Of a stretch of DNA of 64,000 nucleotides, positions 3,086 through 54,485 are shown one piece after another. A model generated the notes under the pieces. That model did no database searches. It had not been told where the DNA came from and worked only from the letters and a program-made list of their open reading frames with translations. A program made the position numbers and the translations under genes. The stretch lies in the NCBI GenBank assembly GCA_016187035.1, contig JACPKL010000001.1:14607-78606 (forward strand). Direction: 5' to 3'. This DNA comes from Candidatus Daviesbacteria bacterium (GTDB lineage Bacteria; Patescibacteriota; Microgenomatia; Daviesbacterales; UBA10151). Position 1 is the first letter of the stretch. Every line of letters starts with the position of its first letter.

Positions 3086-3122
3086 GTCATCGCGAGCGAT
3101 TAGCGTGGCGATCTTCTAGTGC
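3086..3122. repeat. Palindromic element family A, half copy
   Basis: GTCATCGCGAG-CGATTAGC-GTGGCGATCTTC. The left terminus plus core half is retained and the right half is absent. Confidence 0.65.
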
Positions 3123-4641: not shown

Positions 4642-6021
4642 TTAATCAAATAACCCCAATTGCGGAATTTCATTCTTTTCCTCTTTTACAGATTCATCAT
4701 CAGACTGCCAAATTTTCACTACCCCATATACTCCATCATAACCAGGATCTATCACTAAATCACCGTCTCTGTCTTTTTTTACTCCTTCTGCAATTCTTTC
4801 TCCTGAGATTTTAGCTATTTCCTGAATGTCTACTTTGGTCAGAATCTTGATCTCACTACCTAAAGCAGTTGTTAGCTTTTTGTATTCATTTAAGACCTTC
4901 TGGGTTGTTGGAGCAGTATTAAAAGCCTCTGCTATTACCTGTAATAATGGTACTAACATTCTATATTCTGGCCTATCTAGGTTTTTGCTTTTAACCACCC
5001 CTTCTTCTTTAATTTCCCCTAACTCCTCTGCTCCTCTGTCTGCTAACTTCTCCACTCTTTCCATTACTCCTATTGTCAAACCTCTTTTGCAAACAGGACA
5101 GGTTGTTCCCTTAAGTTTTGAATCCTGCGGAGCATACTTAACATTACAATTTCTATGTCCTGTGTAGTGATACTTGCCTTCTTCAGGATAAAACTCAATT
5201 GTCCCAATCACTTTGTCATTGCGAGGGTCGCCGTGGCGACCCGTGGCAATCTCTTTTATTTCCAAGGAAGATTGCTTCGCTTTGCTCGCAATGACGGATA
5301 GTTGAGTAATAGCTCTCCATAAATTGTCATACGTAAACTCAGCCAGATCAAAAACTGTAGACTCCCTGCCTAGATTGGGTAAAGAATGAGCATCAGAAGA
5401 AGATAAAATTGATCTGTTGTCTAACTCTTTAATTCTCCAATTCATGGCCGGGGAAGAGCTTAAACCAGTTTCTATACCATAAACATATTCTGTTAAATCT
5501 TCAAAACACTCTTCCAAACTATCATAGCCGGATTCTGAACCAAATATGCCAAACCAGGGTGTCCAGGCATGCGCGCATACAAAAATAGCCTTGTCTGAAA
5601 CCTGCAAAGCTAAACTTAACAAATCTTTGGAAGATATTCCCACAATTGGTCTGCCGTCTGAGCCTAAATTAGCCCTTCTTGAAAGAAGTTCTTTTTGAAA
5701 CCTTTCTGCTGATGAGAAATCCGGTAAGTAAACTAAATTATGCACCCTTCTGCCCCTGCCTTTGTGAGAATAAATTGAAGCAATTTCTACAGTTAATAAA
5801 AATTTAACACTTGGATCTTTAGGATAAGTTAAAAAACCTGAGCCATCTTCTTTAAGCTGATTTTTAAGTTCTGTTAACCAAAGCGGATGCAGAAAATCTC
5901 CTGTACCTAATAAATCTATACCTTTCAGCTTACACCACTGCACCAAATTAGGAACATTCAGTTGTTGTGAACAAGCCCTGGAATACCTGGAATGAATATG
6001 CAAATCTGCAATATATGCCAT
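4642..6021 (-). CDS. Endonuclease Q-like PHP-domain nuclease with zinc finger
   Basis: MAYIADLHIHSRYSRA, GTGDFLHP, AHAWTPW, SSSDAHS, GKYHYTGHRNC..CPVCKRG and a C-terminal IDPGYDGVYG, collinear with archaeal EndoQ as I recall it. Carries an 81-bp in-frame palindromic element. Confidence 0.8.
   Translation of the reverse strand: MAYIADLHIHSRYSRACSQQLNVPNLVQWCKLKGIDLLGTGDFLHPLWLTELKNQLKEDGSGFLTYPKDPSVKFLLTVEIASIYSHKGRGRRVHNLVYLPDFSSAERFQKELLSRRANLGSDGRPIVGISSKDLLSLALQVSDKAIFVCAHAWTPWFGIFGSESGYDSLEECFEDLTEYVYGIETGLSSSPAMNWRIKELDNRSILSSSDAHSLPNLGRESTVFDLAEFTYDNLWRAITQLSVIASKAKQSSLEIKEIATGRHGDPRNDKVIGTIEFYPEEGKYHYTGHRNCNVKYAPQDSKLKGTTCPVCKRGLTIGVMERVEKLADRGAEELGEIKEEGVVKSKNLDRPEYRMLVPLLQVIAEAFNTAPTTQKVLNEYKKLTTALGSEIKILTKVDIQEIAKISGERIAEGVKKDRDGDLVIDPGYDGVYGVVKIWQSDDESVKEEKNEIPQLGLFD
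5215..5295. repeat. Palindromic element family A, 81 bp, in-frame in the EndoQ-like gene
   Basis: GTCATTGCGAG-GGTCGCCGTGGCGACCC-GTGGCAATCTC..GGAAGATTGC-TTCGCTTTG-CTCGCAATGAC. Translated as SVIASKAKQSSLEIKEIATGRHGDPRNDK. Confidence 0.9.
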
Positions 6022-6041: not shown

Positions 6042-7829
6042 TCACCTTTTAAACTGCTGATTATACATCTCAATCAATTCTTTAACAGTGGTGGCATCTT
6101 CCCCTCTCTTATCAGCTTCCCTGAATTTAATCAATCTGGGAAACCTTAAAGCATATCCTGGTTCACTATTTTCTTTACCAGCAGTGTGCAGGGGCGAACG
6201 GGTGATTTCATCTGCTAATACTTCAATTACTATTTTAGGTTCAACCCAAACACTTGGAACTATTAAAGAATTAACTCTGGTCGGTTTACTTTGAACTTTG
6301 AACTTTGAACTTTGAACTTGTATCTCTCTCCATTCTTCATCTGATAAACCTGTTCCTATTTTTGAAACAGTCACGAATTCATCTTTTAACTCATCATAAA
6401 CACCAACCAACAAAGCACCTGCTCCAAACTCCGCTCTTTTACCCTTGCCATAAATATAACCTAACATTACACAATCTATAGTATCTTGTAACTGCCCTGA
6501 GGAATGCCTTTTTAATTTCACCCAGTTAAAATTTCTGGCTCCGGCTGAATAAACCGAAGTCACTCTTTTAACCACTAACCCTTCAAGATTGGCAGTTAAT
6601 GCTTCTTGCAGTAACTCCTCCAAACGGTTAACCTCAATCACTATTTCACCTGGTTGAGGAATTAAAATACCGTTTTCTTTAATAGTATCTTTTAAAATCT
6701 CCATCCTCGCTTTTAAAGGTTTATTAATCAAAGATTTACCATCTTTATACATAATGTCAAAAACAAATGCTTTTAAAGGTAAGCTTTTAGCCATTTCCTC
6801 TACCTTGTACTTTCTTCTTCTTTTAGTAGTTTCCTGAAATGGTAAAAACTCATCTGAGGCAGGATTATAAGCTAACGCCTCGGCATCTAATATAATTGTT
6901 TGAGCCTGAACCTGATTGTAAACTGCCTCAATCAGTTCGGGAAACATATGAGTTGTCTCTTCTAAATTACGGGAGAAAATTCTAACTACTTTTCCATCCT
7001 TATGCAGCTGTGTTCTAAATCCATCAAATTTTTTCTGAACATGAGCTTCTCCTTCAAACTTTTCCAAAATAGTTTTAGCATCAGGCAATCTTTCTGCCAG
7101 CTGGGATCTGATGGGCCTGCCTACTTTGACATCCAGTTTTTGCACTCCTGCCAAACCCTTGGTCCATAAAGTCTCCCCAATCAACCCTAAATCAGATGTT
7201 TTATTGTATGCTTCTTCTAAACTTGATCTTTGCTTGCGATCTCCTAATTTTGCCAAAGCAAATGCATCTAAAATGGTCGGATCACCAATTCCTAACCTGG
7301 ATACTCCCAAAGGAATCCTGACCAAATGTTTGCCAGATACCCCATTAACCTGTTTTAATAAATCAGCCAGGGTGGAAACTTTTTTCTCTACAGTTCCCTC
7401 ACCTTGAGTTTGTGCTATACCTCTTAAAATCTCAAAGACTTCTTTAACTGTCATTCCGAGGTCCGATGAAATCGGACCGTGGGAATCTTTCTTAGTTAAG
7501 ATTGCCACGTCGTCCCGATTTAATCGGGACTCCTCGCAATGACGTTGGGCAACCAATCCTAAATCCCCTACTTTTCCATATTCTTTTAAAACCTCTTCCC
7601 TTTCCATCCCATAAGCCCTGGCAATAGCAGCAGCTATCAGCTTCTCACTCATACCAATTTCGATGGCTTCATAAAAAGGAGCTACCCTGCCCTGGATTAA
7701 ATAACTCACATGTCCAATCTCCCCAACATTCACTTTAGAAAAAAGCTCAGCCAAAATATCAATTAAAGAGAGTCTGGAGGATGTCTGTTCTAATTTTTCA
7801 AAATACTCAGCTAAGGTGGAAAAAGTCAT
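6042..7829 (-). CDS. lig: ATP-dependent DNA ligase (archaeal/eukaryotic type)
   Basis: Adenylation motif I KFDGFRTQLHK, EGLVVK, and an OB-fold C-terminus. Contains one family-A palindromic element and a heptamer tract, both in-frame. Confidence 0.9.
   Translation of the reverse strand: MTFSTLAEYFEKLEQTSSRLSLIDILAELFSKVNVGEIGHVSYLIQGRVAPFYEAIEIGMSEKLIAAAIARAYGMEREEVLKEYGKVGDLGLVAQRHCEESRLNRDDVAILTKKDSHGPISSDLGMTVKEVFEILRGIAQTQGEGTVEKKVSTLADLLKQVNGVSGKHLVRIPLGVSRLGIGDPTILDAFALAKLGDRKQRSSLEEAYNKTSDLGLIGETLWTKGLAGVQKLDVKVGRPIRSQLAERLPDAKTILEKFEGEAHVQKKFDGFRTQLHKDGKVVRIFSRNLEETTHMFPELIEAVYNQVQAQTIILDAEALAYNPASDEFLPFQETTKRRRKYKVEEMAKSLPLKAFVFDIMYKDGKSLINKPLKARMEILKDTIKENGILIPQPGEIVIEVNRLEELLQEALTANLEGLVVKRVTSVYSAGARNFNWVKLKRHSSGQLQDTIDCVMLGYIYGKGKRAEFGAGALLVGVYDELKDEFVTVSKIGTGLSDEEWREIQVQSSKFKVQSKPTRVNSLIVPSVWVEPKIVIEVLADEITRSPLHTAGKENSEPGYALRFPRLIKFREADKRGEDATTVKELIEMYNQQFKR
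6288..6320. repeat. Heptamer tract ACTTTGA x4.7 (in the ligase gene)
   Basis: ACTTTGAACTTTGAACTTTGAACTTTGAACTTG encodes VQSSKFKVQSK. Confidence 0.85.
7450..7543. repeat. Palindromic element family A, 94 bp, in-frame in the DNA ligase gene
   Basis: GTCATTCCGAG-GTCCGATGAAATCGGAC-CGTGGGAATCT..AGATTGCCACG-TCGTCCCGATTTAATCGGGAC-TCCTCGCAATGAC. Translated as RHCEESRLNRDDVAILTKKDSHGPISSDLGMT. Confidence 0.9.
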
Positions 7830-9305: not shown

Positions 9306-9818
9306 TCACAAAATGGTATTAATGGTATTAGCAGTTAAACGATTGACTTCCATTACCACCACCCACTTCTCTATTCCCAAATCTTTAATATATAATTCCA
9401 ATTTATCAAAAACGTTTCTTTTGCTCACCCAAACACTTTTTTGTAAATGCTTAAAACCCCATTTTTTAAGATTTCTTCTAAATAAGTTTCTGATAATTCT
9501 TTTTTGTTCTGGAATATCAAATATTACTATCCTCCACTTTCCATCCCAATCTTTCTCTTCATAATTATCACTGATTAATTCCTTTCCAGCTTGAGTCAGT
9601 TTTATTATTACATCATCCTTGACTTTTGTCTGTTCAATCAACCCCCCTTCCCTTAGTCTTCTTAACGCTTGGGATAAAGAGGATTTCCTAAGCTCAGGGA
9701 TTCCGTATCTGTAACGGTAATGATGATAGGTAAAATCTTCTAAACGAACATAACCATCCACTGTTTTTTCCAATACCAGAAGAATCTTATTTGTCAAACT
9801 CTTTTTATAAACCCTCAT
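9306..9818 (-). CDS. Small PaaX-like regulator (N-terminal wHTH plus Cas2-like/PaaX middle domain)
   Basis: WDGKWRIVIFDIPEQKRIIRNLFRRNLKKWGFKHLQKSVWVS matches the PaaX/Cas2-fold pattern. N-terminal wHTH (LSQALRRLREGGLIE). Paralog at 25795-26310. Confidence 0.6.
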   Translation of the reverse strand: MRVYKKSLTNKILLVLEKTVDGYVRLEDFTYHHYRYRYGIPELRKSSLSQALRRLREGGLIEQTKVKDDVIIKLTQAGKELISDNYEEKDWDGKWRIVIFDIPEQKRIIRNLFRRNLKKWGFKHLQKSVWVSKRNVFDKLELYIKDLGIEKWVVVMEVNRLTANTINTIL

Positions 9819-25794: not shown

Positions 25795-26310
25795 TTATTG
25801 TATGTCCAGAGGACCATACTTTTCAGATTCAAAAACCCATACCCACTTCTCCACTCCTAAATCTCTAATATAATTGAATAATTTATCAGTAACGTTCTTT
25901 TTGGAAATCCAGACACTTTTTTGAAAATGTTTAAAACCCCATTTTTTTAAATTCCTTCTAAAAAGATCTCTTATCAACCTCTTTTGTTCTGGTATATCAA
26001 AAATCACTATTCTCCATTTTCCATCCCAACTTGCTGTACCATCACCAGTCAGCAATATCACTGTCTTACCTTCATCTGTCAATTTCAAAACCACTTGACC
26101 GATATCTTTCTTGTCAGTTTCTATCAGACCCTTCTCTTTTAACCTGGCAATAGCCTTAGATAAAGCAGATTTCTTCAGCTCAGGAATCCCATATCTGTAG
26201 CGATAATGATGGTAGGTAAAATCTTCTAAACGTACATAACCATCAATACTTTTTTCTAAAAAAGTCAAAAGGCTATAACTCAAACTTCCTCTTCTAACCT
26301 CCATACCCAT
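25795..26310 (-). CDS. Small PaaX-like regulator, paralog 2
   Basis: WDGKWRIVIFDIPEQKRLIRDLFRRNLKKWGFKHFQKSVWIS. Long identical blocks with 9306-9818 (YVRLEDFTYHHYRYRYGIPEL). Sits directly upstream of the ABC pair. Confidence 0.6.
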   Translation of the reverse strand: MGMEVRRGSLSYSLLTFLEKSIDGYVRLEDFTYHHYRYRYGIPELKKSALSKAIARLKEKGLIETDKKDIGQVVLKLTDEGKTVILLTGDGTASWDGKWRIVIFDIPEQKRLIRDLFRRNLKKWGFKHFQKSVWISKKNVTDKLFNYIRDLGVEKWVWVFESEKYGPLDIQ

Positions 26311-28231: not shown

Positions 28232-28317
28232 GTCATTGCGAGGGATGTACCATACGGTACGTCCCGTGGCAATCTTCCTACTTGAGGTGGAAGATTCCTC
28301 ACTACGTTCGCAGTGAC
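28232..28317. repeat. Palindromic element family A, intergenic copy (86 bp)
   Basis: GTCATTGCGAG-GGATGTACCATACGGTACGTCCC-GTGGCAATCTTCC-tacttgaggt-GGAAGATTCCTCAC-..TTCGCAGTGAC. The right terminus is degenerate. Lies between fba and glpX. Confidence 0.85.
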
Positions 28318-35001: not shown

Positions 35002-35100
35002 AGTATAACATTCAAGAAGTTTCTCTACAATTTATTCCCATACATTTAAACGATCGTATTGTGTTATGTCTTTTTACATATACTATGATAAGATCATCAT

Positions 35101-35892
35101 ATGATTCTAGTTAAAAAGCTACTTTTTGCACCTTTATTTTTAATTACTTTTGCTTTATTAATTTCCCAGCTCTCCCCTATTTTTAAATCTTCTGATTTTA
35201 TCTTTTCTTTATCCATTAACAATCTTTTTCAGTTAATTATTATTTCCATCTTATTGAGTTTATCCTCTTTTTTATTTATTATATTTGCAACTTTGTCTTT
35301 TGACTTAAGACTAATCCTCCCGGTCAATTTACTAATCTCTGTCATTCCTATGTTTTTTTTAGATCAGGCTATTGGAGTAGTTTTAGCTGTGGCAGTGTTT
35401 ATAAGTTTGCTTGTTAGTTATCTTTCTTTGGAAAATACTCTAAAAACTTACTTGAATTTTCAACCAACTATCTTATTTGGTCCATCTTTCAGGCGTTTAT
35501 CCTCTTTTTTAATCTTAGTTATCTCTATCACATACTTTTTGGCAAGCAGCAGCATAATTGCTCAAAATGGTTTTCAAATTCCTGATTCTATAATAGATAC
35601 TACTCTAAAGTTTACTCCTCAATCTGAAACAACTACCAAAATTCCCCAAGAACTAGTTGATAATCTAATCAAACAAACTGTAAAAGATCAGATCCAATCA
35701 TTTATTAAACCTTATTTAAATTTTATTCCTGCAATTTTGGGATTACTGCTGTTTGTAACTTTCCAGTCTCTAACTTCCATTATCAATCTTTTGATATATC
35801 CCCTGCTTTGGATTACTTTTAATATTTTAGAAAAAACAGGGTACGTAAAATTTACAACTGAGATGAGGCCAGTTAAGAAGATGGTTATTTAA
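35101..35892 (+). CDS. Polytopic membrane protein, hypothetical
   Basis: 263 aa with several hydrophobic helices. Its last ~14 codons form the left copy of a ~42-bp direct repeat. Confidence 0.5.
   Translation: MILVKKLLFAPLFLITFALLISQLSPIFKSSDFIFSLSINNLFQLIIISILLSLSSFLFIIFATLSFDLRLILPVNLLISVIPMFFLDQAIGVVLAVAVFISLLVSYLSLENTLKTYLNFQPTILFGPSFRRLSSFLILVISITYFLASSSIIAQNGFQIPDSIIDTTLKFTPQSETTTKIPQELVDNLIKQTVKDQIQSFIKPYLNFIPAILGLLLFVTFQSLTSIINLLIYPLLWITFNILEKTGYVKFTTEMRPVKKMVI
35851..35892. repeat. Direct repeat, left copy (target duplication flanking the TA cassette)
   Basis: TTTACAACTGAGATGAGGCCAGTTAAGAAGATGGTTATTTAA versus 36490-36531 TTTATAACTTAGATGAGGCCAGTTAAAAAAATGGTTATTTAA (38/42 identical by my alignment). 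Confidence 0.85.
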
Positions 35893-37022: not shown

Positions 37023-39347
37023 TTAATTTTCCTCCGGCTTCATTTCTCCCCAAGTTTTGCCTGCTTTTAAATCAACTACCACTGGTACTGATAATTCTAG
37101 AGCATTTTCCATTTTTTCTTTGACCATTTTAGCAATCTGGCGGACTTGTGGTGAGCCTGCCGAACCATCACATTCAAACAAAAGCTCATCATGAACTTGA
37201 AGAATTAACTTACAGTTATCAGTTTTCGGTTTTCTGTTTTCAGATATTGGTTTGCCGGTTTTCTGTTTACCAGATTGACTGATAACTGATGAACTTTCAT
37301 CCGACGACTGACCACTGAGAACCGATAACTCCTTATCAATTTCCACCATAGCCTTTTTAATCATGTCAGCTGAAGATCCCTGAATAGGATGATTAATTGC
37401 TGCTCTTTCTCCTTGAGATCTGATCATTCTATTTGAGGCTTTTAGCTCCGGCATATATCTTTTTCTACCCCAGATAGTCTCTACATAACCATTTTCATAC
37501 CCAAAAGCTAAAGTTTGCTCCATCCATTCCCGTACTTTAGGAAACTGCTCAAAATATTCCACTATGTATTGACGGGCTACTTCATATTCCACTCCTAGTT
37601 GCCTGCTTAAAGCATGTGGACCCTGGCCATAAAGAGTAGCAAAATTCATGGTTTTCCCAACATTTCTTTGCTCATAAGAAACCTTTCCCACAGGTACTTT
37701 AAAGATCTTTGCAGCAGTGGCGCTGTGGATATCCAAGCCTGCTAAAAAAGCCTGTTTTAATCCTGGATCATCTGCCAGATGAGCCATAATCCGAAGTTCT
37801 ATCTGAGAATAATCAGCTCCAAATAATACTTTTCCCTTGGGAGCAATAAAGGCTTTTCTGACCTCTCCTCCAAGTGTACCCCTGATTGGGATATTTTGAA
37901 GGTTGGGGTCCTGGGAAGAAACACGTCCTGTGGCAGCTCCTTCCACATTAAAAGTAGAATGTATTCTGCCGTCTTCCCCAACTGATTTTGGTAAAGCGTC
38001 AATATAGGTGGAAACTAACTTGAAAAGTTGGCGGTATTCCAACAAAAGGGGTACAGCAGGGTGAGCTATAGATAATTCTTTCAAAGTCTCCTCATTTGTT
38101 GACCTGCCGGTTTTGGTTTTTTTAAAAACAGGCAATTTTAACTCGTCAAAAAGCACTACCTGCAGTTGTTTTGGGCTGTTCAGATTAAACTGATGACCTA
38201 TTTTAGAGTAAATTTCTTTTTCAATATTAGTTAATTTAGCTTTTAAATCGGTCCCAAGCTTATTTAAAAACTTAAGATTTATTAATATTCCTGACTTGGA
38301 CATTTTTTCCAAAACCGGCTGGACTTGGAGATCTAAATCAGTAGTGTCATTGCGAGGAAGTTTACCCTGAGCCGATTCGGCCTGAGGGCTCACGGCCTCG
38401 AAGGCTTGTCGAAGGGTGGCAATCTTCCCACTTGAGGTGGAAGATTCCCACGGCCCTTCGGGCCTCGGAATGACAGGAAAAGGTAATCTGTTTATCAAGC
38501 TCTTAAATTCCAATTCTTCGAATAATTCTCTTACCTTATTAGCATCGTAATCATGTACTCTACAAGCTGCTAAATCTAGCTTGACAGGGGCATTTGTATC
38601 TAGAGTAGCTAATTTTTTACTCATCACAGCTGATTCTGCTCCCTCGGCCAGTAACTTTTGCATTCTTTCGGGTAAGGTCTTCAAATTTTTAGGCAAGTAG
38701 ATTTTCTCAATAGAACCGAATTGGTGAATCAATTTAGTGGCTGTTACATCTCCTATACCAGCTACCCCTGGAATGTTATCTGAAGCATCTCCTGCCAAAG
38801 CTTTGTAATCTATCATCTGAGGAGGCATAAAACCATATTTAGCTACAAACTCCTCTACTCCATAAAGGCCCACATCCTGTAAAGTTTTTTTTGGCATTAA
38901 TACTTTAATATTTTCATCAATCAGCTGCATAATATCCCTGTCACCCGTGACTATTATAACTTCTAATTTTTGAGCTTTGAGCTTTGAGCTTTGAGTTGCC
39001 AAAGCGCCTATTAAATCATCTGCCTCATAACCTGACAGCCTAAACTCAGGAATATTAAAAGCTTTCACTACCTGATAAACCCTATCATACTGGGAAGATA
39101 AACCATCATCAGCCGGTCCCCTGGTAGCTTTATACTGAGTGTAAGCTTGATGCCTGAATGTTGGCCCTTTTTCATCCCAGGCAATGGCTAAAAAATCAGG
39201 TTTTAATTCATTTAAAGTCCGAAGAAGCATTGAGGAAAAACCATATACAGCATTAATTAACTCACCATAAGATGTGGAAAAAGGAGGAGTGGCGTGATAA
39301 GCCCGATGAAGTAAAGCATTCCCATCAACCAAAACCAAATGTTTCAT
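37023..39347 (-). CDS. polA: DNA polymerase I: 5'-nuclease plus polymerase domains, no 3'-5' exonuclease domain
   Basis: N-terminal 5'-3' exonuclease (VLVDGNALLHRAYHA, GDRDIMQL, GVAGIGDVTATKLI). Pol A motifs DYSQIELRI, RNVGKTMNFATLYG and QVHDELLFE. The two domains are joined by a translated 129-bp palindromic element. A second ~40-aa heptamer-derived insert precedes QVHDE. Confidence 0.9.
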   Translation of the reverse strand: MKHLVLVDGNALLHRAYHATPPFSTSYGELINAVYGFSSMLLRTLNELKPDFLAIAWDEKGPTFRHQAYTQYKATRGPADDGLSSQYDRVYQVVKAFNIPEFRLSGYEADDLIGALATQSSKLKAQKLEVIIVTGDRDIMQLIDENIKVLMPKKTLQDVGLYGVEEFVAKYGFMPPQMIDYKALAGDASDNIPGVAGIGDVTATKLIHQFGSIEKIYLPKNLKTLPERMQKLLAEGAESAVMSKKLATLDTNAPVKLDLAACRVHDYDANKVRELFEELEFKSLINRLPFPVIPRPEGPWESSTSSGKIATLRQAFEAVSPQAESAQGKLPRNDTTDLDLQVQPVLEKMSKSGILINLKFLNKLGTDLKAKLTNIEKEIYSKIGHQFNLNSPKQLQVVLFDELKLPVFKKTKTGRSTNEETLKELSIAHPAVPLLLEYRQLFKLVSTYIDALPKSVGEDGRIHSTFNVEGAATGRVSSQDPNLQNIPIRGTLGGEVRKAFIAPKGKVLFGADYSQIELRIMAHLADDPGLKQAFLAGLDIHSATAAKIFKVPVGKVSYEQRNVGKTMNFATLYGQGPHALSRQLGVEYEVARQYIVEYFEQFPKVREWMEQTLAFGYENGYVETIWGRKRYMPELKASNRMIRSQGERAAINHPIQGSSADMIKKAMVEIDKELSVLSGQSSDESSSVISQSGKQKTGKPISENRKPKTDNCKLILQVHDELLFECDGSAGSPQVRQIAKMVKEKMENALELSVPVVVDLKAGKTWGEMKPEEN
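37212..37330. repeat. Degenerate heptamer array with inverted ends (CAGTTATCAG / CTGATAACTG) in polA
   Basis: CAGTTAT CAGTTTT CGGTTTT CTGTTTT CAGATAT TGGTTTG CCGGTTT TCTGTTT ACCAGAT TGACTGA TAACTGA ... encodes LSGQSSDESSSVISQSGKQKTGKPISENRKPKTDN just upstream of QVHDELLFE. Confidence 0.7.
38346..38474. repeat. Palindromic element family A, 129 bp, in-frame in polA
   Basis: GTCATTGCGAG..(extra GC-rich hairpins CCTGAGCCGATTCGGCCTGAGGGCTCACGGCCTCGAAGGC)..GTGGCAATCTTCCCACTTGAGGTGGAAGATTCCCAC-GGCCCTTCGGGCC-TCGGAATGAC. Translated as VIPRPEGPWESSTSSGKIATLRQAFEAVSPQAESAQGKLPRND. Confidence 0.9.
38971..38995. repeat. Heptamer tract TGAGCTT x3.5 (in polA)
   Basis: TGAGCTTTGAGCTTTGAGCTTTGAG encodes SKLKAQKLE. 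Confidence 0.85.
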
Positions 39348-53252: not shown

Positions 53253-54485
53253 TCACTTAACTCCATATGCTAACTCCACCATGATTTTTGCAGTTGAAGT
53301 CATTGGAGTCTCCCTGCCAAATATATGAAAATCAAACCCTTCCTTACGGCCTACTCTTTTTAGCTCCTCAAAAGCTTCCTGATCCCTTGGCCCGCCTCTT
53401 CTTATCACAATTGGGTAAGCAGGCTTTGGTTTAATTTCCCTAAGCCCTTCTACAAAGCCCATTAAAGTTTCATAAATATCAGTAAAATTGGCTGTGCCTC
53501 CCACAAACCAACAACCCTTAAGTCCTGGTTTTCCTAGAACAATTTTAGTTAATTTTTTCAATTTTTCTCTGGGAGGGTTGCCTGAGTGTTCAGTATAATT
53601 AGCCGCCCTTCCTCCAAAAGTTACTAAAGCATCCATGTTAACTATAGACCCTCCACCTCCTGCAGCAATGACTGCAATGTCTCCATCCCGAAGGTCCCAA
53701 TAAACAGAGCCTGCAGTACCTCTGTGATCTCCTTCATCTATTTTTCTGGCTTCAATTTCAGCCTCAGTTGGGGGTCTGCCAAACAAATTTCTTTGGGGAA
53801 ATTTAATTTCCCTTCTAAAGTCTGCATCATCGTCCAAGATAACTTTGGCATCTAAAGCATAGACTCTCTTGTCATTGCGAGGTCCGCCCTGGCGGACCGT
53901 GGCAATCTTTCCATTTGAGATGGAAGATTCCTCGCTTATGCTCGGAATGACAGAAGTGGTAGAAACTACCAAAGGATTTATTTCTGCCAGTTCTAAGTCA
54001 TATTTTGTGAATACCTCCCAAAGCTCTGTAATAGTATCTGTAAATTGGACATAATGTTCAACGATCGTTGAAGGTAACGTCATATTTAGAGGATCAACAG
54101 GAAAACTCTCTGCGCCTTTTTCCTCTACTCCTGTCCCACCTTTGCCAAAAGTTAACACAGGTCCTCTTGTTGCTGTGGAGTATGAGAAAGACAGATAATA
54201 CTCCTTACCAACATCAACCATTTGTTCAACTAAAACCTTCTCCACCTTCTCATTGTTAATTGTCTTTGAAAGTAATTCTTCAATCTTAAATCTTAAATCT
54301 TCCATCTTCTCTACCACCAAAATCCCCCCAGCTTGTGCTCTTTTTCCAGACAAAACTTGAGCTTTCAAAACCAAAGGAAGTTTTAAGGTTACTTCCTGAT
54401 CTGCAGATTCTAAGAGTTGTGACTGGGGAACATTAATCCCACAACTTTTAAAAAGTTGTTTGCCTTCAAATTCGAAGAGTTGCAT
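53253..54485 (-). CDS. Succinyl-CoA synthetase beta-subunit / ATP-citrate-lyase beta-like ATP-grasp protein
   Basis: N-terminal ATP-grasp (MQLFEFEGKQLFKSCGI). C-terminal ligase-CoA-like IAAGGGGSIVNMDALVTFGGRAANYTEHSGNP. Carries an 81-bp family-A element in-frame between the halves. Confidence 0.75.
   Translation of the reverse strand: MQLFEFEGKQLFKSCGINVPQSQLLESADQEVTLKLPLVLKAQVLSGKRAQAGGILVVEKMEDLRFKIEELLSKTINNEKVEKVLVEQMVDVGKEYYLSFSYSTATRGPVLTFGKGGTGVEEKGAESFPVDPLNMTLPSTIVEHYVQFTDTITELWEVFTKYDLELAEINPLVVSTTSVIPSISEESSISNGKIATVRQGGPRNDKRVYALDAKVILDDDADFRREIKFPQRNLFGRPPTEAEIEARKIDEGDHRGTAGSVYWDLRDGDIAVIAAGGGGSIVNMDALVTFGGRAANYTEHSGNPPREKLKKLTKIVLGKPGLKGCWFVGGTANFTDIYETLMGFVEGLREIKPKPAYPIVIRRGGPRDQEAFEELKRVGRKEGFDFHIFGRETPMTSTAKIMVELAYGVK
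53871..53951. repeat. Palindromic element family A, 81 bp, in-frame in the SucC-like gene
   Basis: GTCATTGCGAG-GTCCGCCCTGGCGGAC-CGTGGCAATCTTTCCATTTGAGATGGAAGATTCCTC-GCTTATG-CTCGGAATGAC. Translated as SVIPSISEESSISNGKIATVRQGGPRNDK. Confidence 0.9.
54285..54301. repeat. Heptamer tract CTTAAAT x2.4 (in the SucC-like gene)
   Basis: See 4229-4259. Confidence 0.8.

Follow-up and report, generated by a model that had tools for sequence, protein, structure and literature searches.

The DNA polymerase I gene (polA) of a Candidatus Daviesbacteria bacterium holds a 129-nt palindromic element between the codons for its 5'-nuclease domain and those for its polymerase domain. This is probably a non-autonomous selfish element that sits in the linker of a PolA already devoid of a 3'-5' exonuclease domain and is translated as a disordered tether. 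The gene and its parts lie as follows within the window, that is, the whole 64-kb stretch of DNA that was analyzed.

37023..39347, minus strand: polA CDS, 774 aa, 5'-nuclease plus linker plus family-A polymerase (ORF list, Pfam, Taq/Klenow alignment, Foldseek)
38475..39347, minus strand: 5'-3' nuclease (FEN-like) domain and C-terminal helix, residues 1-291 (Pfam, Taq alignment, pLDDT)
38346..38474, minus strand: 129-nt palindromic element, translated in prediction as residues 292-334, predicted disordered linker (inverted repeats, folds, frames, pLDDT)
37026..38339, minus strand: polymerase domain, residues 337-774, split by the second insert (Pfam, Taq alignment, KlenTaq match)
37215..37325, minus strand: second hypervariable insert, residues 675-711, directly ahead of motif C (QVHDE) (gap at Taq 772-777)

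The 774-aa product is identical to the NCBI entry [quoted passage not shown] Pfam places 5_3_exonuc_N (PF02739) at residues 4-172 (E = 1e-50), 5_3_exonuc (PF01367) at residues 175-269 (E = 1e-28), and DNA_pol_A (PF00476) at residues 360-768 (E = 5e-141). Residues 4-301 align with Taq Pol I 14-300 and the polymerase part with Taq 433-829, residues 338-674 corresponding to Taq 433-772. By Pfam and the Taq alignment, Daviesbacteria PolA has the FEN-like N-terminal nuclease of a canonical PolA1, and it also has the family-A polymerase domain with motifs A, B, and C. In the AlphaFold2 model, the pLDDT of the 5'-nuclease domain is mostly 80-95, and the best Foldseek matches are Taq/KlenTaq (KlenTaq rmsd of 2.9 A over ~430 columns). 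Across 66 homologues there is no change in the acidic residues of the 5'-nuclease or in polymerase motifs A, B, and C, the invariant polymerase residues being D512, R561/K565/F569/Y573, and H719-D720-E721. With its catalytic motifs unchanged across these homologues, PolA is, on sequence grounds, under purifying selection.

The initial annotation had proposed a 129-bp palindromic element read in frame as 43 codons of PolA. The element (GTCATTGCGAGG...CCTCGGAATGAC, 38346-38474) is indeed exactly 129 nt long and encodes residues 292-334 of 774, VIPRPEGPWESSTSSGKIATLRQAFEAVSPQAESAQGKLPRND, which sit between ...ELEFKSLINRLPFP and TTDLDLQVQPVLEKMS. The polymerase domain, said to start straight after the element, does adjoin it, but two residues (TT) intervene before the first conserved ones. 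The terminal inverted repeat spans 13 nt (38345-38357 and 38463-38475; 92% complementary), an inner 13-nt hairpin is also present, and the GC content is about 0.55-0.60, compared to about 0.33-0.42 in the flanks. The predicted RNA fold has an energy of -62.1 kcal/mol (z = -4.2), and none of 200 shuffled sequences was as stable. An Rfam scan of the whole window returned three tRNAs only and nothing at the element. Within the element, two units and a joining hairpin can be distinguished.

38346..38424, plus strand: long unit GTC-ATTGC...(two inner hairpins)...GCAAT-C, 79 nt (unit regex, ssDNA folds)
38443..38474, minus strand: short unit GTC-ATTCC-GAGGCCCGAAGGGCCGTG-GGAAT-C, 32 nt, inverted relative to the long unit (unit regex, ssDNA folds)
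38416..38451, no strand assigned: central hairpin GTGGCAATCTTCC...GGAAGATTCCCAC joining both units (inverted repeat; direct-repeat family, 4 copies)

The central hairpin is common to other copies in the window, and the inner segment of the long unit at 38365-38388 is unique in it. Only one of the six reading frames of the element is open, and it is the frame used by polA, which fits the survivorship of tolerable insertions. From the open frame and the conserved flanking domains we infer that the insert is translated as part of PolA. The pLDDT falls below 50 over two stretches, residues 294-332 and residues 686-707, and the domains flanking them are modeled with confidence. No clamp-binding motif (QxxLF) or other conserved peptide motif was seen by eye in the 43-residue insert. 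Since insertion into the linker is tolerated, the element can be read as a disordered 43-residue tether between intact catalytic domains.

The element had also been assigned to a repeat family, and this assignment holds. The window contains five full copies of 81-129 nt (the polA copy included) and one solo unit, and GTCATTGCGAGG with up to two mismatches has 12 matches in the window against 1.8 expected. The remaining members are listed below.

5215..5295, minus strand: 81-nt copy, in frame in a 459-aa ORF without a Pfam match, translated VIASKAKQSSLEIKEIATGRHGDPRND
7450..7543, minus strand: 94-nt copy in the N-terminal domain of an ATP-dependent DNA ligase, in the opposite orientation and a different reading frame
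28232..28317, plus strand: 86-nt copy in the intergenic space separating a class-I aldolase gene from a glpX-type FBPase gene
53871..53951, minus strand: 81-nt copy, in frame in a citryl-CoA-synthetase/ACL-like ATP-grasp protein, translated VIPSISEESSISNGKIATVRQGGPRND
3086..3113, plus strand: solo unit GTCATCGCGAGCGATTAGCGTGGCGATC, with which an inositol-monophosphatase-family gene ends (final 9 codons and TGA stop)

Of the five full copies, four lie in frame inside genes, at loops, linkers, or interdomain positions, and the fifth is intergenic. Nine of their ten units fold as GTC plus an ATTSC...GSAAT stem plus C, the exception being a degenerate unit at 28293-28317. Two duplicated 170-aa ORFs (9306-9818 and 25795-26310), considered as possible transposases/RAYTs, turned out to be PaaX_M/Cas2-like wHTH regulators.

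Between the nuclease and polymerase domains the initial annotation had noted no exonuclease, and it had named an exonuclease HMM match as the finding that would speak against this and a Klenow/Taq alignment as a check. Pfam returned no 3'-5' exonuclease family in PolA even at E <= 1 (PF01612 and PF22619 included), and in the alignment nothing in PolA corresponds to the vestigial exonuclease domain of Taq (about 301-432). Where the domain would sit, the AlphaFold model has a disordered segment only. Daviesbacteria PolA lacks the 3'-5' exonuclease of canonical PolA1, and the same architecture (PF02739 plus PF01367 plus PF00476 without PF01612) is found in all 119 homologues listed, which are 696-777 aa long, 67-75% identical, and nearly all from Daviesbacteria/Microgenomates. 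Relatives L015 and L019 have no element, linkers of 11-12 residues, and unchanged domain boundaries. The distant CPR PolAs L022, L030, L034, and L043 gave no exonuclease match in a Pfam scan that did detect PF22619/PF01612 in the positive controls L040 and L042, and Paceibacteria-type CPR PolAs likewise lack the domain. Linkers measure 177-272 residues in non-CPR PolAs and mostly about 80-106 in the Paceibacteria type, with 67 residues of L022 left unaligned to Taq, as against a minimum of 11 in Daviesbacteria. These comparisons indicate that the loss of the exonuclease domain is older than the divergence of the whole lineage and independent of the repeat. The whole domain was probably already gone in the Daviesbacteria ancestor, most of it having been lost earlier still within the CPR/Patescibacteria.

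Across homologues, the linker between the two catalytic domains varies from 11 to 62 residues in length (more than 20 residues in 91 out of 120), and its sequence is not conserved. In the nearest relatives, P0002 and P0003 (74-75% identical), the linker has no element. The linkers of about a third of the relatives contain other GTCAT...ATGAC elements, usually read as V-I...N-D; these differ from one another (GCGAG, CCTGA, TCTGG, and CCTGC types) and have intact arms. The peptide hallmark VI[ALPS] occurs in 46 of the 120 homologue linkers, with both end hallmarks in 34, and its density is 14 per 1,000 aa in linkers versus 3.1 per 1,000 overall. The interdomain linker is, as far as these patterns tell, a permissive and recurrent landing or retention site that has been colonized by many different elements. 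The second insert of PolA (residues 675-711) carries a different inverted-repeat family, CAGTTATCAGT/ACTGATAACTG, and its length in homologues ranges from 3 to 41 residues.

The units of the polA element resemble NTS/Ssn-related motifs, and we tentatively tie them, by sequence likeness, to the Ssn/NTS system. In the NTS, CGTCATTCCCGCGMAVGCGGGAATCYRG, the positions that matter most are the base triplet on the 5' side of the palindrome and the C that directly follows it (Chenal et al. 2025, PMC11893778). Units and NTS/SRM have in common a 5' GTC, a palindrome ATT[C/G]C...G[G/C]AAT, and then C, so the functionally critical NTS positions are matched; the oriented hairpin of SRM/NTS (GTC 5' and C directly 3') is present in 9 of the 10 units. 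The same paper describes an NTS-ssnA-NTS layout and NTS/SRM as repeats around genes, and a term search of its full text turned up neither Patescibacteria nor copies lying inside genes or in frame (PMC11893778). The published SRM pattern, HGTCWYN(0-2)YYVSBRHN(0-5)WNVSBRGN(0-2)RNCYNB, had no match on either strand of the window (0.12 expected from shuffles) because the inner hairpins of polA-type elements are longer; formal SRM membership therefore cannot be claimed.

Searching metagenomes with the unit pattern retrieved 120 loci, with a density of 0.68 units per kb. These loci contain five Ssn-like GIY-YIG ORFs (assigned by Pfam PF01541 and similarity), on contigs from other organisms, all of which are flanked within 150 nt by a plus-strand unit below and a minus-strand unit above. 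The arrangement is that of the NTS-ssnA-NTS cassette, an inward-facing inverted unit pair, and it is also the geometry of the gene-less elements studied here. Such unit-ssn-unit cassettes, found elsewhere, are the sole candidate parent of the polA-type elements. No Ssn-like GIY-YIG ORF was present in 681 kb of sequence from polA loci and the window, no GIY-YIG gene was found by regex and HMM (118 family members) in the window or 80 polA loci, and about 150 kb of Daviesbacteria polA loci held no GIY-YIG/Ssn gene. A homologue search seeded with the GIY-YIG protein of L171, a low-GC unit-flanked contig, yielded no Daviesbacteria Ssn among source-named proteins; the source-named relatives were from Gastranaerophilales and other phyla.

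The elements could also have been spread by another mobilizer, either a RAYT (IS200/IS605-like) or, as in MITEs, a DDE transposase that uses the 12-13-nt terminal repeats, in which case the likeness to NTS/SRM would be superficial. Terminal inverted repeats and a MITE-like size are what such a mobilizer would leave, the published SRM search sequence is unmatched, no Ssn gene occurs in the Daviesbacteria sequence searched, and the Ssn paper itself draws a parallel between the Ssn system and REP/RAYT (PMC11893778). However, units with the same ends, GTCATTGCGAG...GTGGCAATC, bracket the Ssn-like GIY-YIG ORFs in five cases out of five, and the ORF-flanking units share their outward-GTC geometry with the gene-less elements. 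The GTC before the stem and the C after it, which are key NTS cleavage/binding positions, are kept in 9 of 10 units, and the subset of window ORFs scanned with Pfam included no cognate transposase or RAYT (Y1 transposase included). We therefore consider a non-Ssn mobilizer rather unlikely. A different kind of doubt concerns whether the insert is in the protein at all, since this is a metagenome-assembled genome, repeats can mis-join contigs, and introns in RNA genes are reported for CPR genomes. An assembly chimera at the repeat, a polA pseudogene, or intron-like removal from the RNA is nevertheless barely credible: polA continues on both sides, colinear and in the same frame, the length is a multiple of three, and catalytic residues are conserved on both sides. 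No Rfam family, and hence no intron model, reaches its gathering score over the element. Three other copies are also in frame in conserved genes, and the equivalent linkers of many independent assemblies contain comparable in-frame elements.

If the insert is in the protein, it might have been co-opted, with a longer flexible tether selected, once the domain was lost, to coordinate the 5'-nuclease and polymerase or an mRNA hairpin (-62 kcal/mol) slowing ribosomes between the domains. The many relatives that keep linkers of more than 20 residues (91/120), the unusually stable RNA structure, and the position precisely between two independently folding domains are in line with this. We still find co-option improbable, because linker length is free to vary (11-62 residues) with no sequence conservation, otherwise similar enzymes have short element-free linkers, members of the same family lie in unrelated genes and intergenic DNA, and the 43 residues hold no conserved peptide motif such as QxxLF. 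The initial annotation had left two options for the missing domain, an ancestral deletion later occupied by the element or a deletion mediated by the element. The second option, in which this or an earlier copy there caused the exonuclease loss, e.g., by recombination between two flanking copies, is suggested by the location of the element exactly at the missing-domain junction, where many relatives also have elements; as the family is repeated in the genome, ectopic recombination is conceivable. Yet the domain is absent from every listed relative, with or without an element and with linkers down to 11-12 residues, from the nearest relatives, which have no element, and from other CPR classes, whose linkers have no such element. 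The initial annotation had itself taken element-free relatives with unchanged domain boundaries to count against its proposal, and L015 and L019 are such relatives. The arms and hairpins of the present copy are nearly perfect, which suggests that it is much younger than the divergence of the lineage and far younger than the loss. Deletion by the element is accordingly very improbable, and the first option, later occupation, is the one favored by all 119 homologues lacking the domain, element-free ones included. The element and the missing domain likely coincide because the interdomain linker is a permissive site, with no causal tie between them.

A translated selfish element in an already exo-less PolA could have arisen as follows. 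The exonuclease domain would have been lost first, in the Daviesbacteria ancestor, and the element would have come into the linker later. Its anatomy is a pair of inverted hairpin units of the form GTC-ATT[G/C]C-(variable perfect hairpin)-G[G/C]AAT-C, with a short central hairpin between them. As the linker presumably needs no fixed structure, a frame-keeping and stop-free insertion, which we assume to be nearly neutral, would survive. An Ssn-type GIY-YIG nuclease, supplied in trans, may have spread the element by recognizing its ssDNA hairpins, the polA element being the gene-less form of a "unit-ssn-unit" cassette. The two-unit core GGCAATCTTCC...GGAAGATT was present in 0 of 200 fetched loci, which accordingly revealed no donor or master copy. 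For polA, no empty site was found at nucleotide resolution, and the flanks of the element have only a loose context, T before GTCAT and A after ATGAC.

Two places in an essential replication and repair enzyme, the linker that follows residue 291 and the loop preceding motif C, seem to tolerate selfish DNA that is translated. These permissive sites, mapped by comparison, could be useful for the engineering of family-A polymerases. In-frame palindromic elements, known mainly from Rickettsia, occur in the candidate phyla radiation too, and the tentative tie to Ssn/NTS offers a testable mechanism for the spread of such elements. Deletion of the domain by the element, tempting as a causal account, is best dropped as wrong. 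We can also imagine a broader picture, which is speculative and in our judgment has less than an even chance of being right. Ssn-type hairpin elements might be a general and ongoing source of in-frame disordered insertions in essential CPR proteins, which in roughly one in three Daviesbacteria species would repeatedly hit the polA linker and the pre-motif-C loop, and Rickettsia palindromic elements (RPEs) might stem from the same ssDNA-nuclease process. Separately, an exo-less Pol I with the 5'-nuclease tethered directly to the polymerase might be a lineage-wide CPR architecture outside current family-A classifications.

As a polymerase, Daviesbacteria PolA resembles Taq and other Pol I enzymes with a vestigial exonuclease, in that these are 5'-nuclease-plus-polymerase orthologues without proofreading. 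Taq-type enzymes keep the exonuclease fold, whereas in Daviesbacteria PolA the fold is wholly absent and element-free relatives have as few as 11 residues in its place. The DEDDy motif is disrupted in about half of PolA1 enzymes (PMC12926913), and two recent PolA surveys, that one included, mention neither CPR nor an exo-less architecture. The literature searched yielded nothing relevant on CPR Pol I without an exonuclease domain, an absence that is no proof of novelty. In Pol I of Daviesbacteria, and apparently of other CPR classes too, the entire fold is gone and not just the active site, and one may ask how a tether of only 11 residues allows the two active sites, polymerase and 5'-nuclease, to be coordinated.

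As a repeat, the polA element shares with MITEs and REP/BIME a small, non-coding size, repeated occurrence, terminal inverted repeats, and strong hairpin potential. Its family has the small size (81-129 nt) and the terminal inverted repeats (13 nt and 92% complementary in polA) of MITEs; no target-site duplication is defined for polA-type elements. REP elements are extragenic by definition, whereas most copies of the window family are intragenic. On CPR with MITEs or in-frame palindromes, the literature searched yielded nothing relevant, which again does not prove novelty. The closest analogue would be the RPEs, ~100-150 bp palindromic repeats that are described, in an account citing Ogata et al. 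2000, as lying in frame in unrelated, often essential genes and as encoding extra segments compatible with the host fold (PMC10969869). Judged by that description, the likeness lies in in-frame palindromic insertion in a reduced-genome bacterium, and the copies in polA, the DNA ligase, the citryl-CoA-synthetase-like protein, and the 459-aa ORF are likewise palindromic repeats in frame in unrelated genes. The differences are that the host here belongs to the CPR/Patescibacteria and that the element comprises two inverted NTS-like units with hypervariable inner hairpins, 81-129 nt in all. As Rickettsia is among the genomes with >300 SRM elements (PMC11893778), a deeper link between RPEs and SRMs is possible.

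The initial annotation had described a palindromic element within the DNA polymerase I gene (polA), and this description was accurate: the element is 129 nt long, palindromic, and in frame as residues 292-334 of the protein. The gene and its two inserts are as follows.

37023-39347, minus strand: polA, an open reading frame (ORF) for a 774-aa protein that GenBank lists, with an identical sequence, as a "hypothetical protein" from a Candidatus Daviesbacteria MAG
38346-38474: palindromic element of exactly 129 nt, GTCATTGCGAGG...CCTCGGAATGAC, in frame within polA
37215-37325: second hypervariable insert (PolA residues 675-711), just before motif C and predicted to be disordered

The terminal arms of the element are 13 nt long and 92% complementary, and the inner hairpin is also 13 nt. 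GC content is ~0.55 to 0.60 in the element versus ~0.33 to 0.42 in the gene around it. Its RNA fold was predicted at -62 kcal/mol (z = -4.2), and none of 200 shuffles was as stable. Only one of the six reading frames is free of stops, which is the frame actually used, encoding VIPRPEGPWESSTSSGKIATLRQAFEAVSPQAESAQGKLPRND. We infer that this insert is translated as part of PolA.

Pfam placed the 5'-3' nuclease, in two halves, at residues 4-172 and 175-269, followed by the family-A polymerase domain at 360-768, with no further credible domain even at E ≤ 1. In an alignment with Taq Pol I, residues 4-301, 338-674, and 712-768 corresponded to Taq 14-300, 433-772, and 777-829, respectively; the second insert (675-711) fell between the last two blocks, and the vestigial exonuclease domain of Taq (~301-432) was left uncovered. 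The initial claim that PolA lacks a 3'-5' exonuclease domain thus held up. AlphaFold2 (input alignment of 66 sequences; mean pLDDT of 79.5) modelled both catalytic domains confidently, and the pLDDT dropped below 50 in both inserted segments (residues 294-332 and 686-707) and likewise in loops 71-80 and 465-487. The Foldseek neighbours of the model were Taq Pol I, M. smegmatis Pol1, and KlenTaq, with the polymerase part superposed over ~430 columns at 2.9 Å. Across all homologues compared, the catalytic residues were unchanged both in the nuclease and in polymerase motifs A, B, and C, which argues that polA is a working gene. The 43 residues of the element most probably form a passive disordered tether, as judged from the model, and the polA copy is an ordinary, probably neutral insertion.

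The missing domain had been explained in two ways: as an ancestral deletion later occupied by the element or as a deletion that the element itself mediated. The 119 best PolA homologues listed (696 to 777 aa; 67 to 75% identical; those that carry a name are Daviesbacteria or Microgenomates) all had the same three Pfam domains and lacked PF01612. In an alignment of 120 PolA sequences, the flanks ...EFKSLINRLPG and TTDLDLAVQPVLEKMS were conserved on either side of the linker between the nuclease and polymerase domains, and the linker itself was hypervariable (11 to 62 residues; 20 or fewer in 29 sequences). Two relatives' polA loci had element-free linkers of 12 (L015) and 11 (L019) residues with unchanged Pfam domain boundaries, and the closest relatives among the matches listed (proteins P0002 and P0003) had no element in the linker. 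The survey of relatives therefore speaks against mediation by the element, which is polymorphic or absent while the domain boundaries stay the same, and the polA copy still has near-perfect arms although the loss is ancient. The initial placement of the element and the reading of an ancestral deletion that was later occupied both stand; a deletion mediated by the element does not. The missing exonuclease domain is unrelated to the polA element.

Distant Paceibacteria-type PolAs of the candidate phyla radiation (CPR) (L022, L030, L034, and L043; ~38% identity) gave no exonuclease match in a Pfam scan in which the positive controls from Armatimonadota (L040) and Gemmatimonadota (L042) were matched by PF22619/PF01612. 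The L022 protein covered Taq 15-283 and 418-828, with just 67 residues unaligned in between. Linkers measured 177 to 272 residues in non-CPR bacteria, mostly ~80 to 106 in Paceibacteria-type CPR, where they may retain a conserved helical remnant, and down to 11 in Daviesbacteria. These graded lengths, together with the absence of the domain in relatives without the element, suggest that the loss was stepwise as well as ancient, and it looks CPR-wide. More broadly, Paceibacteria- or Saccharibacteria-labelled PolAs of ~780 to 800 aa (L020-L037, L041, L043, and L056; e.g., L022:3001-5349) had no detectable 3'-5' exonuclease domain and shared the linker motif ...ALWLLNSDITNPT.EDIL....

Other members of the polA element's superfamily sat in relatives' linkers; their inverted ends were intact, but their interiors differed.

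L002, L007, and L011: GTCATTGCGAG...CTCGCAATGAC
L003 and L038: GTCATCCTGA...TCAGAATGAC
L018: GTCATTCTGG...CCAGAATGAC
L006 and L016: GTCATTCCTGC...

The peptide motif VI[ALPS] occurred in 46 of the 120 linkers, four to five times more densely than across the whole protein, and both end hallmarks were present in 34. The linker is thus a recurrent landing or retention site for such elements. The second site behaves like the linker: it spans 3 to 41 residues across homologues and in relatives sometimes carries GTCAT-type elements (peptides VIASEAKQS and VIPAKAGIY). In the window, it is occupied by another inverted-repeat family, CAGTTATCAGT/ACTGATAACTG, with CGGTTTTCTGTTT repeated. The longest ORF of locus L016 was unusually long (1232 aa). 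A Daviesbacteria PolA homologue of 1153 aa (P0101) contained the intein/LAGLIDADG domains PF14890 and PF14528, so polA of this lineage also hosts inteins.

The window contains five full copies of the family, including that in polA, and a solo unit.

7450-7543: in frame, N-terminal domain of an ATP-dependent DNA ligase
53871-53951: in frame, citryl-CoA-synthetase/ACL-like protein, in the hairpin turn joining the ATP-grasp part to the citrate-binding part
5215-5295: in frame, 459-aa ORF without a Pfam match
28232-28317: intergenic
3086-3113: solo unit GTCATCGCGAGCGATTAGCGTGGCGATC at the 3' end of an inositol-monophosphatase-family gene, where it supplies the final nine codons (EDRHANRSR) and the TGA stop

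All full copies but the one at 28232-28317 are intragenic (four of five), and three of these four use the frame giving V-I-x... and ...P-R-N-D at the ends. Each copy is built from a pair of inverted units, GTC-ATT[G/C]C-GAG-(variable, nearly perfect hairpin)-GTG-G[G/C]AAT-C, connected by a central hairpin, GCAATCTTCC...GGAAGATT. The end motif was enriched in the window (12 matches versus 1.8 expected), as was the unit pattern (11 versus 1.9 in shuffles). When folded as single-stranded DNA (ssDNA), 9 of the 10 units in full copies formed a stem closed by ATTSC/GSAAT, with GTC unpaired 5' of the stem and C directly 3' of it; the exception was a degenerate unit (28293-28317). The inner hairpins vary in sequence from copy to copy and retain the stem.

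The solo unit adjoins the start of a peptidyl-tRNA hydrolase gene. The ligase (6042-7829) is of the ATP-dependent archaeal/eukaryotic type: among solved structures it matched PDB 2hiv best ("Thermostable DNA ligase"; E = 5.5e-120), not an NAD-dependent LigA. Elsewhere, paralogous genes for 170-aa wHTH + PaaX_M/Cas2-like regulators (9306-9818 and 25795-26310; 81% identical over 150 nt) each have conserved ACGATCG-containing repeats beside them, and a third repeat copy (35036-35070) lies upstream of ORF 35101-35892.

The unit layout recalls the Neisseria NTS, CGTCATTCCCGCGMAVGCGGGAATCYRG, an oriented hairpin bound and cut as ssDNA by the small GIY-YIG nuclease SsnA; cleavage depends on the bases immediately 5' to the palindrome and binding on the C that directly follows it (Chenal et al. 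2025, PMC11893778). In many phyla, ssn genes have Ssn-related motifs (SRM) on their flanks, an IS-like NTS-ssn-NTS arrangement, and such motifs abound in symbionts including Rickettsia and Wolbachia (PMC11893778). We scanned metagenome contigs for GTCATTGCGAGG-N(8-38)-CGTGGCAATC (120 loci; 655 kb; GC content of 0.25 to 0.70) and searched them with an HMM built from 118 Ssn-like GIY-YIG proteins. This yielded five Ssn-like ORFs in the 655 kb and none in the 681 kb of polA loci plus window. All five had a plus-strand unit and, on the opposite side, a minus-strand unit within 150 nt, where the background density of units was 0.68 per kb. The outward-GTC geometry is common to these unit-ssn-unit cassettes and the gene-less window elements of 81 to 129 nt. 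In the simplest reading, the window elements would be miniature, gene-less derivatives of such cassettes, mobilised in trans. No ssn gene was present in the window or in the Daviesbacteria sequences searched, and mobilisation by RAYT-type or IS-type machinery is possible. In one metagenome contig (L090, Ga0172381_10015542; 6200-7066), at least eight GTCATTGCGAG...GCAATC units are packed around one Ssn-like GIY-YIG gene, resembling a BIME-like array or unit-amplification hotspot. Another (L144, Ga0210039_1097764) has 15 pattern matches in 1.2 kb, ~45 and ~120 nt apart, as a tandem unit array.

The repeated colonisation of two permissive sites in an essential enzyme across a CPR class deserves attention, as do the likely Ssn link and an exonuclease fold that has been lost completely. 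Two recent surveys of family-A polymerases mention neither CPR nor Pol I without the whole exonuclease fold, and this lineage-wide exonuclease-less Pol I may be underdescribed. Our limited literature search, which leaves novelty unproven, found no match linking CPR with MITE-like or in-frame palindromic elements, and neither intragenic copies nor Patescibacteria are mentioned in the Ssn paper (PMC11893778). The closest structural relatives of the window elements are the NTS/SRM hairpins, which share the GTC / ATT[C/G]C...G[G/C]AAT / C layout; their longer inner hairpins keep the window units from matching the published degenerate search string. The closest functional analogue is the Rickettsia palindromic element (RPE), palindromic selfish DNA inserted in frame into unrelated genes of a reduced genome. 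The polA element is thus best described as RPE-like in-frame selfish DNA that is probably related to Ssn.
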